A stretch of 64,000 nt of DNA from Naegleria gruberi (Eukaryota), in the NCBI GenBank assembly GCA_000004985.1, contig GG738862.1; one strand, given 5' to 3'. The notes beneath the pieces are model-generated. The model was not told where the DNA came from, made no database searches, and was given only the letters and a program-made list of their open reading frames with translations. The position numbers were made by a program, and so were the translations under genes. Numbering within the stretch: the first letter of the stretch is position 1; every line of letters begins with the position of its first letter. Below are positions 1,338 through 54,410 of this stretch, one piece after another.

Positions 1338-4300
1338 TTATTGTAATTTAGCAAAATTTCTTGGTGCTTTTCGATATTTGTTGTGGACAAATTCCAAAAA
1401 GTCATTCACCAATATTTCATTAGAATCGTGCATGTCCATAAAATCAGAAGGGAGAGAGTGAACTGGAATGCTTAATTGATAAAATTGATTTCTATTGTTG
1501 GAGGTTTGAGGAATTGGTTGTGGTGGAGGTGGACCGTGTGGATTAGAGATGGGAAATGAAGATGTTTCACTTTTAAAAACTTGTTGTTGTTGTTGAGGAT
1601 TGATCATACTTGAGGGTGGACTTGATCTGTTATTAGGTGGTGGCGGTGCAGTCATTGGTGAATTAGAGAAAATTGAGGAAAGAGAAGGTAATGAAGAGGA
1701 TCCAGTGGACACAGGTGATTGTTTTACATGAGACTGGTGTGATTGGGTTGGATATGGTGGGCTTCCAGAAGAAGATCTAACCTCTGATGGATGTTGTTGT
1801 TGTGAATAATAATGATTATTTTGAGAAGGGTTACCATTAACATTATTACTATCAAATATTAAGGAACTTGCACTGTAACTTGGCCTATAGGTTGATTGTT
1901 GTTGTGGAGGTGTTCCAAAAGATGAACTTACTGCATGGTTAATAGGTTGATTGTTTGAATAATAACCATGTCCTCCACCAGCAGAGGATGCAGCAGGACT
2001 ACCAGAAACATGATTAAATGATTGATTCGAATGACGTTGAGGTGGTTGATGATTCTTATAACCATCCATATAATACGGTGAAGGGGCTTGTTCTGGATGC
2101 AAGGGCGACACCACCACGTTATAGTGTTGTGGTGATTGTTGTTGGTGTGAAATACTGCTGTTATTGGCAAGCTGAGACAATTGGTTTCTAGAATCCCTTA
2201 AAGGTGGTGTTTGCTGGTGGTATGTTGTTGTTGTATGATGAGGTGTATGTGTTGGGGGATATGGATTGTAAGCATGTGAATGATTCGCCGAATGTTGCGA
2301 AAAGGTAACTGAAGGGGATTCATCACAAATTAAGGAATTTGATTTGGTGTTAGCGCCATCGCTTAGTGAAGAGGCCACTTGCCTTAATTTGGCACCGATT
2401 GGAGAGGAAGAAGATCCAGAATTAGAGGAAGTCAAACCACCATAACCTCCTCCACCTTGAGGGGTTGCACTGATACTTGTTGGATTTCCTGTGAGAGTAC
2501 CTTTTGCAGTCTTGATTCTCCGTTTGTCGAAGAAGAAGGAACGTGCAGTAAGGCAAACAATAGTTGGACTAAGCAAGAGTGAAATTCGTGTCTGTTGTTG
2601 TTGTTGTTGTTGCTGTAGTTCACTTAGATACGGGAGTGCAATCATTTCAAATCTAACTTTCAATCTCTTGTTCACAACCTTGACTGTCTTTCTTTCCAAA
2701 GAGAAATCCAAATTACGAGAGTAGACCAAGAATGAATCCACTGGTTTTTCCTCCTGTTCATTATTCTTTAAATATTTCTGATAGCATTGAATTGGATCTA
2801 GAGAAAATTCATGAACTAGCACTTCCTTTGCTGTAAATTCAGCATTCTTATAGAGTATTTGGTATTTGATTGGTGAAATAATGGAAGGATTTAAATTACC
2901 AGATGAAAAATCATCGAAAATTGTTTTAAATTGATTCAGAGTTTGTTCCTTAATTTTCACCCATAAATGAAGAACTACTTGCTGATTTTCATACCATGTT
3001 AAACCTTGTGTTTCTGAAGTATCTGGTGAATTTCTTCCACAAGAAGATGCAGAACTGGTTGAATCAGTACTCTTTCCACTTTCAAAATTTGTAAAAACTC
3101 CATTTGGTGTGCATTTAATATAGTCAATTCGAGTTAAATTACTATTATTATTTGCAGAAGAACTGCTCGATGATACACCATTCAATATAGATCCTTCAGA
3201 AGAATTAACACCAGTATTAACAGTAGCAGAAGTGGCAGTATTACTGTTCACTGAATCATAATTTCCACAAGAATTTAAATTATTTGCTATTGTGGAATTT
3301 GAGGTAGTGCCTGTCGCAGATAACAAGGATGGATTGTAATAACCATCTGAAAATAGCTGTCGCATATCACTATTAGAAAGATGCAACTCAAATTCTAACA
3401 TTTCATGCATGTGACATGTCATCCTCTCCACAAGTCTTTTAATGTGTTGATCATTTTCAATCATCGAAATAACATTATTTTGATGATATTGTTGTTGTGA
3501 TGTAATATTATTACCGTTATTTGAGTAGGAATGATCAGTCATCTGATTGTGGCTAAGTGATGATGGATTTGATTGTTGTTGTTGACCCATCATATTTAAA
3601 GAATTATTGGGAGAAGGATCCACGGCAAACGTTTGATTTGTTGTTGATCTATAAACTATATTTGAATACATAGTTTGTTCACTACCACACTGTCCATTGT
3701 TATTAGTATTAGTATTAGTATTCACATGTGGTGATTGCATCCTATTTTGTTGATTATTGTAATATGATTGTTGTCCTGTTGTTGGTGGAGGAGGATTTGA
3801 TGATGATGGCAACACGTGATGATGGTGGTGTGAATTTGTTTTGTTTTCCAAAACGGAACCGTCTTGCTGTTGTGAAACTCTTTGTTGAATCACTATGGGA
3901 GAACACATGTTCGAATCTTGGTGAATGGTAGGCAATGAACTATAGCTCGATTGAATTTCACAGGACATATTTGTGGCCTTACTACCTAATGTGAGATCAC
4001 AAAGATCGGTGCTATGAAAGCTCTTTGAAGAGTTGGCAGGTTGTTGTTGCCTTTCATTCATAGATGGTTGTTGGTTGGATATATGTGATGAGGCGGTGAA
4101 GTTTTTTGGAGTTGGAGATGATTGGATTCGTAGTATAGAAAGATTGCTACCATGCATGGTTGTAGGCTGAGGTGGAGAATGGAAACTTTTTGGAAAAGAA
4201 TCCTTATATAAGGATGTTGATGAAGCATGTGGGGAAGTCTGATAAGATGCAATTACATTCATATTGTTTGCTTGATTATTGGAAGTAGTTTGATTTAAGG

Positions 4301-51698: not shown

Positions 51699-52999
51699 AT
51701 GATCAACAGTAGTTGTTGGTTGGTAGCTGTTTTGTTGATGTTGTGCCTCGTCTCAACTGCAACATGTGCTATTGCCTTGGCTGGTAATAAGAGAGCTGCT
51801 CCATCAACTGCTATGTGTACTCGTTACACTTCTGCATCATTGGTTGGAGATGTTGATTTGAGTAAGGTCACTCCAAAGCCTGTTAACTGTCCTTTGGGAT
51901 GTAATTTGTATACTGTTTCTGGCTCTGCATTGGGTTATAATGGTCCACTTGGGGCTTTGGGGTATGTTGTGTAGCTTTTATGATTTGTTTTACTATTTAT
52001 CAAACATTTTCATTATCATGATCAATCAGTCCTTTGGGTCCTTTGGGTCCTGTTTCCACTGGTACCCCTTACAATGTTCCTGATAATTTTGTTTGGTATG
52101 GAAATAACTTTAATACTTACCTTAAGGAAATGAATGCATGTGATAAGTTATTGAGCCATCCACAAAATCCACTCTCTTCTGCTGGCCCAATGGGTGATGC
52201 TTTCTTTGATGTCATGCCAAAGATTAACGATTTCACTAAACACATGATGGGTAAGTTGTTAAATAGTATTTGAATGCTAATAGGAATATTTCAATACGAA
52301 ATGTTGATGAAACCATTATTATATATTTACAAATTTTACACATTAAAAGGTATGGGAGTTTGGACTGTTTTGGGACCATTGGGACCTTTGGGCCCACTTG
52401 GTGCTTTGGGACCATTGGGTCCAGTTGGTTGCCACATGTTGGACGTTGATAAGGATGGTCAATTCGTCAGTAAGAAGGGTGAAGTTTTGAGAACTACCTC
52501 AGTTGTTTATAACTCGTCCCTCACTGTTAACTGGCCTCTTTTCGAAAGATATAAGAGTAGAGAATTCGTTGACAAATTGTCCAAGAAGGGTTTGCTCGAC
52601 ACTTCTTTCATGGTTTCTGCTAGTGTTGATATTACTGGTCATGCCTATGACATGGTTGTTACTGAACCTCAATACGTCACTGTCACTGTTATCCCAACTC
52701 TCTGGGCTAAGAACTTCTTCTTGGAAGCTTTCATTAACGGTAAATCTGTTATGAAGTCTGAAAAGCTCTTATTCACTCCTTGGTTCCAAGTCCACATTTC
52801 TGGAGCTGATTTGCAAAATGCTGGTCCAGGTGGAGCTAAATTGAAGGTTGTCATTAAGACTGATCCTCTCGATTGTGGAATGATGTCTGTCTTTGGATGT
52901 ACTATGGATTACACAATGCATGTTGTTGGTTCAACTTCATTCATGATGAGAAAGCCACACCTCAGTTACACTGGTCCACATATTAAGCAATGTGAATAA
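51699..52999 (+). CDS. Secreted protein with two short collagen-like Gly-X-Y tracts; join(51699..51961,52030..52250,52350..52999), introns 51962..52029 (GTATGT, 68 nt) and 52251..52349 (GTAAGT, 99 nt)
   Basis: Signal peptide MINSSCWLVAVLLMLCLVSTATCA. After splicing, exon 1/2 gives GPLGALGPLGPLGPV and exon 3 gives GPLGPLGPLGALGPLGPVG, with Gly every third residue. A roughly 190-aa C-terminal globular domain follows. Splice phases are consistent. Confidence 0.65.
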
Positions 53000-53204
53000 A
53001 TAATTCATGTGTTGTTTAAATGATTGCTCTTGATATTTTATGCCCACCTCTATTTAGGAACTGAGAATACTGTAGTGAGAAGAAGGTTAAATGGACTTTT
53101 GCAAACAAGAAACAAGTTGACAAAAGATTTTTATCCAAATCAAACCAATGACATTATTTTACAATGAATTTATCTGCAGTTTGCTGGAAATCAAAATTAA
53201 AAAA

Positions 53205-54410
53205 ATGGCAACACGTGCAACGGATGATTTGGCACCACCTTTGAAGAAGATGAAAACATCATTTGCCTCTTCTGCTTGTCGATTGTGCCATGATGAAATT
53301 TTAAATATTATGCAATTTTTAACAATTAAAGATGTCGTGTCTTGTTTATTGATTGACACCAATTGGAATATTGTCGGCTCATCAAATGCAATATGGAAAC
53401 CACTCTATGATGAGTTTTTCATGAATGAATTCTTTGAGTGGGATAGACAATTTTTGCAAGATTCTAACAAGCTTGAAAGTGATACTTTTGTTGCAATTGA
53501 TTATGATGATGACTATGAAGATGATGAAGAGGATGAAGAGGATGATGAGGATGAGTATGATGATAACAAACAGGAAAAAAAGAAAGTTGATAAAAGGAAG
53601 GATGATAAAGTAGTGGAAAAACTGGAAGAAACACAAAATGATATTGATCAAATCAAGGACAAGAATGGAAATATTAGTTATTATCGATTATTTCAATTTG
53701 ATTGTCATTATCCGCAAATTGATGAATCATATGTTGATATTATTGACAAATTGAGAAATATAGATTCAATTACCAATGTTGAAACTTTGAAAGAATTAAT
53801 CAAACACATTTGGACAGATAATACAGATTCAGATACTTGGAAAAAAGTTATTGGAACATCAGAAATGGTTCTTGGCAAATCGAATAGGTTATGGAGAAGT
53901 AAGCCACTTCTTGTTTTCCTTTCCATGGTCTTACTGATATTATTCAATAAGGAAAAAATTAATTATTCAGATAGTACCATCCAATTAACAGGACCTAGAG
54001 ATCAACCAGCTTGTGAAATGCCAATATTAGCTTTTTGTAAAATGCTTTCCTCAAATAGATCGAACATTTCCAAATTATGTTCCAAACACAAAATTGATAT
54101 CAAGTCTCTGGGAGCATTTCTAAAAGTTTCTGAACCAAAGACAGAAGAGAGTGAACGCAAATGGTACTACAACGATCGAAGGCAACCAGATGTTTATTTA
54201 TCAGTTATGAAAAACCTATTCAGTCACAAGAATGATGGAACATTTAGTGCTAAACAACAAAATAGTGATTTCGCCAATCCTGATACCGAGGAGTTTGCTC
54301 CTTCCTTTTTCAATGCTGGTTCCTCATTGGTTTGTTTTCAATCTGTGACAGCCCATATCGTTGGAAATGTTATCAAATTTGAATTTATTACAACAGCTAA
54401 ATATTACTGA
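53205..54410 (+). CDS. Hypothetical F-box-like protein with acidic D/E-rich tract (about 400 aa)
   Basis: N-terminal CHDEILNIMQFLTIKDVVSCLLIDTNW resembles an F-box, followed by poly-D/E and a C-terminal unique domain. Confidence 0.55.
   Translation: MATRATDDLAPPLKKMKTSFASSACRLCHDEILNIMQFLTIKDVVSCLLIDTNWNIVGSSNAIWKPLYDEFFMNEFFEWDRQFLQDSNKLESDTFVAIDYDDDYEDDEEDEEDDEDEYDDNKQEKKKVDKRKDDKVVEKLEETQNDIDQIKDKNGNISYYRLFQFDCHYPQIDESYVDIIDKLRNIDSITNVETLKELIKHIWTDNTDSDTWKKVIGTSEMVLGKSNRLWRSKPLLVFLSMVLLILFNKEKINYSDSTIQLTGPRDQPACEMPILAFCKMLSSNRSNISKLCSKHKIDIKSLGAFLKVSEPKTEESERKWYYNDRRQPDVYLSVMKNLFSHKNDGTFSAKQQNSDFANPDTEEFAPSFFNAGSSLVCFQSVTAHIVGNVIKFEFITTAKYY

Follow-up and report, generated by a model that had tools for sequence, protein, structure and literature searches.

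Short, fixed-length Gly-X-Y tracts in a predicted secreted protein of Naegleria gruberi and its relatives in bacteria and protists

Collagen-like proteins of prokaryotes and phages have been reviewed (PMC8968730, PMC3368898). In the bacterial collagen-like regions, the X and Y positions of the Gly-X-Y triplet can hold any residue, polar and charged ones occur in abundance, Thr predominates at Y, and in the prototype Scl proteins a separate domain nucleates trimerisation (PMC8968730). Host-guest work has found that a triple helix can lose up to 21 degrees of stability through substitutions at the Y position (PMC7824840). Extended strands of another kind occur in the glycine-rich polyproline-II (PPII) helix bundle domains, those of the snow flea antifreeze protein and others, which have likewise been reviewed (bioRxiv 10.1101/2023.11.25.568672). 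Here we analyse a gene of Naegleria gruberi located at positions 51,699 to 52,999 of a 64,000-nucleotide stretch of contig GG738862.1 (assembly GCA_000004985.1), the whole of which we call the window. Its predicted secreted product carries short, perfect runs of Gly-X-Y. The initial annotation of this stretch had called collagen-like modules uncommon outside Metazoa; given the reviewed prokaryotic and phage examples, such a module is not remarkable in itself. The gene itself is already annotated but uncharacterised, and its family is without a Pfam or NCBIfam model, a published description or a matching solved structure in the searches made.

The protein contains two perfect Gly-X-Y tracts and, between them, a degenerate third (Table 1). 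Tract 1 comprises six triplets (GYN-GPL-GAL-GPL-GPL-GPV, residues 79-96), and the perfect part of tract 2, GPLGPLGPLGALGPLGPVGCH, comprises seven (GPL-GPL-GPL-GAL-GPL-GPV-GCH, residues 170-190). The initial annotation had reported five and eight; both tracts are present, but the counts need correction, since the string quoted for the first held only five triplets and the eight was a miscount. Among 200,000 shuffles of the protein, one run of at least six glycines with period three arose in 35 and two such runs in none, which, together with the retention of the tracts in more than 100 homologues, indicates that they are more than a chance arrangement. A recent microsatellite or other DNA-level repeat expansion was considered and rejected: the 9-bp period of tract 2 gives only 70% matches, and its synonymous codons are mixed.

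Conservation was assessed in 102 aligned family members with overall identities of 29-56%. The columns of tract 1 are free of indels in 98 of these and those of tract 2 in 100. Invariant residues include G82, G88, L90 and G94 in the first tract and G164, G170, G176, L181, G182 and G185 in the second, where H190 is also kept in 99 members. Glycine fills 97.9% of the Gly positions and proline 69% of the X positions. The Y position is hydrophobic in 94.8% of cases (61% Leu, 12% Ile, 10% Val and 8% Tyr) and polar or charged in 3.3%. Within the middle tract, G140 is invariant and P135, L136 and P141 nearly so; bacterial members read GPLSExGPLGPxGPL(G/S)xA here, and the tract is shortened to NPLSxAGPLG in the heterolobosean/Brachionus group and in some metagenomic members (NPLSSAGPMG in N. 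gruberi). Judged from the alignment, three Gly-Pro-(Leu/Ile/Val) tracts characterise the family, the middle one being degenerate in Naegleria.

A classical collagen-like protein, in which three chains trimerise through the Gly-X-Y tracts and bear three C-terminal heads as in C1q and the collectins, would account for the perfect glycine periodicity, for proline at X and for a secreted product with a globular C-terminal domain. Glycine at every third residue, frequent proline at X and secretion are also shared with Scl1/Scl2, Lcl and PF01391 proteins, and the family shows weak, far-subthreshold similarity to models of PF01391 (50 of the 102 members, best E 7.6e-4), of SclB/Lcl in NCBIfam (12-21 bits against cut-offs of 325-500) and of collagen VI (E 0.5). 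We nevertheless regard this explanation as improbable. Whereas the tracts of Scl and Lcl are long and variable, those of this family run to 6-10 triplets of fixed length, with just 6-7 in N. gruberi and about 70 residues of helix-containing sequence between them. The Y residues of Scl and Lcl are Thr, polar or charged (PMC8968730), whereas 95% of those here are Leu, Ile, Val or aromatic, and the tracts are frozen in length and at X and Y from one domain of life to another. No trimerisation domain is identifiable in the family, and all collagen-family matches lie far under the curated cut-offs (15-21 bits versus 325-500). A Pfam scan of the N. gruberi protein at E ≤ 1 returned no match, PF01391 included. 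The C-terminal head is not C1q/TNF-like, and a single-chain structural model, described below, is confident over the tracts. Leucine at Y, the commonest residue here, is reportedly among the more destabilising in the Persikov-Brodsky host-guest series. Given the fixed length, the near-invariant residues, the hydrophobic Y position, the missing Pfam Collagen match and the confident monomer model, we do not retain the collagen-type triple-helix module that had been proposed for this gene.

The order of parts, a signal peptide followed by Gly-X-Y sequence and a globular C-terminal domain, does recall C1q and the collectins, as does the presence of an intron within a Gly codon of the Gly-X-Y stretch, a feature of C1q and collectin genes as well. 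Unlike in those proteins, the tracts here are much shorter, are interrupted by a folded region and belong to a predicted monomer. The signal peptide that had been noticed earlier appears sound on its anatomy: read by eye, with no predictor, the N-terminus has a short polar start, a 20-residue hydrophobic stretch and A-L-A at residues 26-28, and bacterial homologues likewise begin with hydrophobic leaders. In the structural model, residues 5-27 form a lone helix of lower confidence.

That model was built as a single chain with AlphaFold2 (AF2) from the 102-sequence alignment. For the full chain, the mean predicted local distance difference test score (pLDDT) is 90 and the predicted template modelling score (pTM) is 0.86. 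The tracts are modelled with comparable confidence, at pLDDT 79-92 for tract 1, 94-96 for the middle remnant and 91-98 for tract 2, and in the DSSP assignment they count as neither helix nor strand. AF2 usually gives low confidence to extended segments that are free; the high confidence of the tracts makes it most likely that they pack within their own chain rather than form a collagen rod. When the N-terminal half was modelled without the C-terminal half, the pLDDT fell to 63.5, with the tract blocks at about 43-66, a drop that fits a dependence of the predicted N-terminal fold on the C-terminal domain.

The C-terminal domain is predicted to be a beta-sandwich, in keeping with the globular domain foreseen by the initial annotation. 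Its candidate identities as a C1q/TNF or lectin head did not hold, as the closest fold is that of the clostridial collagenase collagen-binding domain (CBD), or PPC, type, not a C1q/TNF-type jelly roll. The CBDs of ColH and ColG head the Foldseek results (E 1.3e-5; template modelling score 0.63-0.73 on the target), and the domain begins with D-T-S where ColG begins with N-D-S, both proteins being extracellular. Bacterial members have the consensus DNDTSF at this point in contrast to LLDTSF in N. gruberi, in which several of the acidic consensus positions are replaced. The resemblance to ColG s3b and ColH s3 (PPC, the pre-peptidase C-terminal domain superfamily, PF04151) has limits. No significant sequence relation was recovered (hhalign of the family against the verified ColG s3b sequence, E 0.09), the domain is not joined to a peptidase, and the sandwich is fused instead to a conserved N-terminal half with Gly-Pro-Leu strands of its own. 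PF04151 had no match in the N. gruberi protein and weak ones in 5 of the 102 members (best E 0.0026), and a sequence profile search of the PDB returned nothing significant (best BB0238, E 0.37). Ahead of the sandwich, AF2 places strands at 210-214, 220-224 and 227-229 and a helix at 232-240.

The nearness of the predicted sandwich to domains that bind collagen triple helices raises the idea of a self-assembling extracellular polymer, in which the sandwich of one molecule would bind the Gly-Pro-Leu tracts of its neighbours, whether as strands or wound into a small triple helix, to give a wall, coat or matrix such as that of a cyst, spore or biofilm. The hydrophobic leucine stripe of the tracts would favour such protein-protein contacts, and several of the organisms that carry the family make cysts, spores or biofilms. 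AF2, however, accommodates the tracts within one chain at the pTM given above, and no relation to the ColG CBD was recovered at the level of sequence (hhalign, as above); we give this polymer a slim chance, a little below that of the collagen-like trimer. An extracellular enzyme, with an active site drawn from the conserved polar residues H190, E227, Y229, D245, S247 and S356, would make sense of the invariance of E227, Y229, D245 and S247 and the near-invariance of H190, T246 and S356. It is the least probable of the alternatives considered: searches of Pfam, NCBIfam and PDB sequences gave no enzyme-family match, those of the strongest structural matches that are to enzymes concern non-catalytic accessory beta-sandwich domains, and D-T-S-F sits where PPC domains and CBDs appear, from the ColG s3b sequence, to carry the N-D-[ST] calcium-site motif.

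The reading that we favour treats the tracts as fixed parts of the architecture of a globular monomer and not as a trimerising collagen stalk. They would be extended strands, probably of PPII type, with a glycine face that would allow very close strand packing and a conserved leucine face that would pack against the remainder of the chain and be buried there. The C-terminal third is a predicted beta-sandwich of the PPC or collagenase CBD type, and the whole protein would most likely act as an extracellular binding or adhesion module and a single rigid unit. On the whole, it is reasonably probable that this is a monomeric secreted binding or adhesion module whose rigid, buried Gly-Pro-Leu strands dock on or next to the PPC-type sandwich. 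More tentatively, and in our estimate rather doubtful, the three tracts of one chain may form an intramolecular collagen-like or PPII strand cluster clamped by the protein's own CBD-like sandwich, a single-chain fold with no solved counterpart that would have been conserved and exchanged horizontally between bacteria and protists.

Such an arrangement would resemble the PPII bundles in that one chain could pack several extended left-handed strands through their glycine faces. It would differ from them in that the tracts have one glycine per triplet together with proline and leucine, a collagen-type composition that is not glycine-rich, and in that the strands are linked by long, helix-containing connectors and not by tight turns. 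A fold search with the full model matched no solved structure beyond the C-terminal domain (none covered more than about 40% of the model), its clearest matches were to beta-sandwich domains, and none of the top matches listed is described as a PPII bundle.

Several observations weigh against the packed-monomer reading. For the isolated N-terminal half the alignment was shallower (39 versus 102 sequences), which confounds its drop in pLDDT, and covariation cannot underlie the confidence that AF2 places in invariant, low-complexity strands. In a mean-field direct-coupling analysis of 202 sequences (effective number of sequences, Neff, 174), pairs joining the tracts to the C-terminal domain were not enriched, at 9 of the 50 top pairs (18%) versus 17% expected. 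That analysis recovered the strand ladders of the beta-sandwich and gave one small, suggestive cluster linking 84/167/168 with 272/274/306/308. Gene neighbourhoods (Myxococcus, Agarilytica and a metagenome-assembled genome, MAG), domain fusions and the literature offered no functional clue.

The family to which the N. gruberi protein belongs is rare and patchily distributed. A search of 5.8 billion proteins yielded 455 relatives, which carry no precomputed Pfam domain except in one fusion protein. When 1.84 billion cluster representatives were searched exhaustively with the family profile, only 484 reached E ≤ 1e-3 and 241 reached E ≤ 1e-30; most of the top scorers cover nearly the entire profile. 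A typical member is a secreted two-part protein about 340-360 residues long. The N. fowleri homologue is 55% identical to the N. gruberi protein; other members come from N. lovaniensis, Willaertia magna, the rotifer Brachionus, Paratrimastix, Tetrahymena, Myxococcus, Agarilytica and gammaproteobacterial MAGs. Across 185,579 prokaryotic species genomes there are at least about 30 full-length loci, mostly in Myxococcota and marine Gammaproteobacteria, with single occurrences in Acidobacteriota, Micromonospora, Neisseriaceae and Elusimicrobiales. We found no model of the family in Pfam or NCBIfam and no published description of it in literature searches by motif, by gene and protein identifiers, and by PPII and AlphaFold terms. 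All named members are called hypothetical save the Brachionus plicatilis entry RNA43483.1, 47% identical to the N. gruberi protein, whose source name is "Cyclic nucleotide-binding". This name looks like an annotation error, as nothing in the family backs it, and the B. plicatilis gene may have been transferred or may stem from contamination.

Paratrimastix pyriformis KAJ4458239.1 is 60.5% identical to Myxococcus WP_223754144.1, with the other eukaryotic proteins more distant, and this closeness suggests that the patchy spread probably involves horizontal transfer. Outside the ciliates, the Tetrahymena copies come closest, at about 40-46%, to metagenomic members and to a protein from a gammaproteobacterial MAG. 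Taken at face value, these sequence relationships suggest that the gene passed between bacteria and protists several times independently. In bacteria the members are encoded by genes that stand alone, and they have leader peptides; the neighbourhoods in Myxococcus, Agarilytica and one gammaproteobacterial MAG share no common neighbours, and the genes look monocistronic. The heterolobosean proteins carry extra conserved cysteines, consistent with a disulfide-bonded extracellular protein. Domain fusions in longer members were uninformative, apart from a 578-residue metagenomic protein (P0106) in which the module is followed by a PKD-like domain (PF22352) and a proprotein-convertase P-domain (PF01483). 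PKD-like and P-domains are common in secreted bacterial peptidases. A second metagenomic protein, P0124, has 705 residues, about twice the usual length, and two matched stretches; it apparently consists of two tandem copies of the module.

On comparative evidence, the N. gruberi gene is confirmed as real and as spliced in the way first proposed. The gene lies in AT-rich eukaryotic DNA of about 35% GC, and its three exons on the + strand join into an open coding sequence of 1134 nt that encodes 377 residues plus a stop codon. Both introns are GT..AG and low in GC (25% and 21%, compared with 39-44% in the exons). Letter for letter, the spliced product equals the N. gruberi protein XP_002678281.1 (EFC45537.1, D2VBV3; NAEGRDRAFT_66348), annotated as "predicted protein". 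The splicing is supported because the alignment with intronless bacterial homologues is gap-free over both exon junctions, keeping the register and length of the tracts, and because strain polymorphism is concentrated in intron 2. A contig from a second, N. gruberi-like genome (Logan ERR1078381) is 98.2% identical to window 52074-53103, and of its 19 differences 15 fall in intron 2, which is 99 nt long, whereas 827 nt of exon hold only 2. Among the intron differences is an insertion of 6 nt. In the exons, the change 52352 A>T converts Met163 to Leu, the second commonest residue of a family column that has Gly in 75 and Leu in 15 of the 102 members.

The introns had been said to interrupt the Gly-X-Y tracts, the first from within a Gly codon. 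This is correct for intron 1, which splits Gly88 of tract 1, but not for intron 2, which splits the Gly162 codon eight residues upstream of the perfect part of tract 2. This is the border of the extended form that tract 2 takes in the family, beginning with invariant G164. To place these positions in context, the annotated proteins of three heterolobosean homologues were mapped onto their genomic loci in N. gruberi numbering, for four genes in total. The four genes have ten introns at six distinct positions, and every one of them interrupts a Gly codon that lies in a tract or next to one (Table 1). The G88 intron is common to Naegleria and Willaertia and, by this comparison, is old. In Willaertia P0003, introns split up tract 2, leaving one exon of 9 nt (L006 2069-2077) and another of 18 nt (L006 2119-2136), equal to one and two triplets, and the protein assembled from these tiny exons still matches the family consensus.

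Table 1. Features of the N. gruberi gene (window coordinates) and introns of its heterolobosean homologues (N. gruberi residue numbering, or coordinates on their own contigs). A slash within a codon marks the splice junction.
Feature	Location	Strand	Details
Signal-peptide-like N-terminus	51699..51782	+	aa 1-28, MINSSCWLVAVLLMLCLVSTATCAIALA; read from sequence
Exon 1	51699..51961	+	aa 1-87 and two bases of the Gly88 codon
Tract 1	51933..52054	+	aa 79-96, GYNGPLGALGPLGPLGPV, interrupted by intron 1
Intron 1	51962..52029	+	68 nt, GTATGT..CAG, phase 2, Gly88 codon GG/T
Exon 2	52030..52250	+	aa 88-161 and first base of the Gly162 codon
Degenerate middle tract	52166..52204	+	aa 134-146, NPLSSAGPMGDAF
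Intron 2	52251..52349	+	99 nt, GTAAGT..AAG, phase 1, Gly162 codon G/GT
Exon 3	52350..52999	+	aa 162-377 and stop codon
Tract 2, extended	52355..52438	+	aa 164-191, GVWTVLGPLGPLGPLGALGPLGPVGCHM; perfect part 52373-52435
Middle beta/alpha region (predicted)	52439..52588	+	aa 192-241; invariant G198, L225, E227, Y229
C-terminal beta-sandwich (predicted)	52589..52996	+	aa 242-377; begins with conserved D-T-S-F motif
Intron position G79			phase 1; N. lovaniensis
Intron position G88			phase 2; N. gruberi, N. lovaniensis, Willaertia P0003
Intron position G162			phase 1; N. gruberi, N. lovaniensis
Intron position G176			phase 2; Willaertia P0003
Intron position G179			phase 2; Willaertia P0003
Intron position G185			phase 2; Willaertia P0003 and P0006
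Willaertia magna introns	L006 (JBEGDK010000065.1) 1713-1766, 2031-2068, 2078-2118, 2137-2190		
N. lovaniensis introns	L007 1760-1878, 1907-1969, 2197-2308		
Willaertia intron	L008 2028-2094		

All ten introns are GT..AG, and nine are preceded by exonic GG. Given this GG/ context, placement in Gly codons is unremarkable (nominal p 0.13). The location of all six positions in or beside the tracts goes beyond it (nominal p 0.002, a post hoc value with the N. gruberi coding sequence as proxy). Among the 45 pairwise comparisons of the ten introns, one reached a marginal z of 2.7, with no sign of copying. The gene structure had also been likened to that of collagen genes. Fibrillar collagen exons start with an intact Gly codon, whereas the introns here split Gly codons in phase 1 or 2 within a GG/GT donor context, and the only likeness between the two is that exon lengths are divisible by 9 nt. 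Introns do cluster in the tracts of all four heterolobosean genes, but the analogy with collagen is superficial.

Upstream of the gene, the open reading frame (ORF) corresponds to the neighbouring annotated gene NAEGRDRAFT_48287. Downstream, a 420-residue ORF on the + strand (window 53148-54410) has an acidic, low-complexity middle. Taken from the Met at 53205, it had no exact match in the protein collection searched, so the public gene model there probably differs in its start or introns.

The N. gruberi protein provides a worked example of short, perfect Gly-X-Y runs that are not necessarily a sign of collagen. A structural motif can be told from a triple-helical stalk by the conservation of its length and of its residues at X and Y, a distinction useful in annotation. 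That introns gather in the repeat, in one gene leaving an exon of just 9 nt, makes a case for sequence context shaping intron positions. If the predicted fold is right, the family would offer a compact, natural single-chain scaffold built partly of collagen-type strands, of interest to researchers in protein folds and design. Should the tracts indeed form the intramolecular strand cluster outlined above, it would be a natural case of collagen-type strands serving as the core of a globular protein instead of a fibre.

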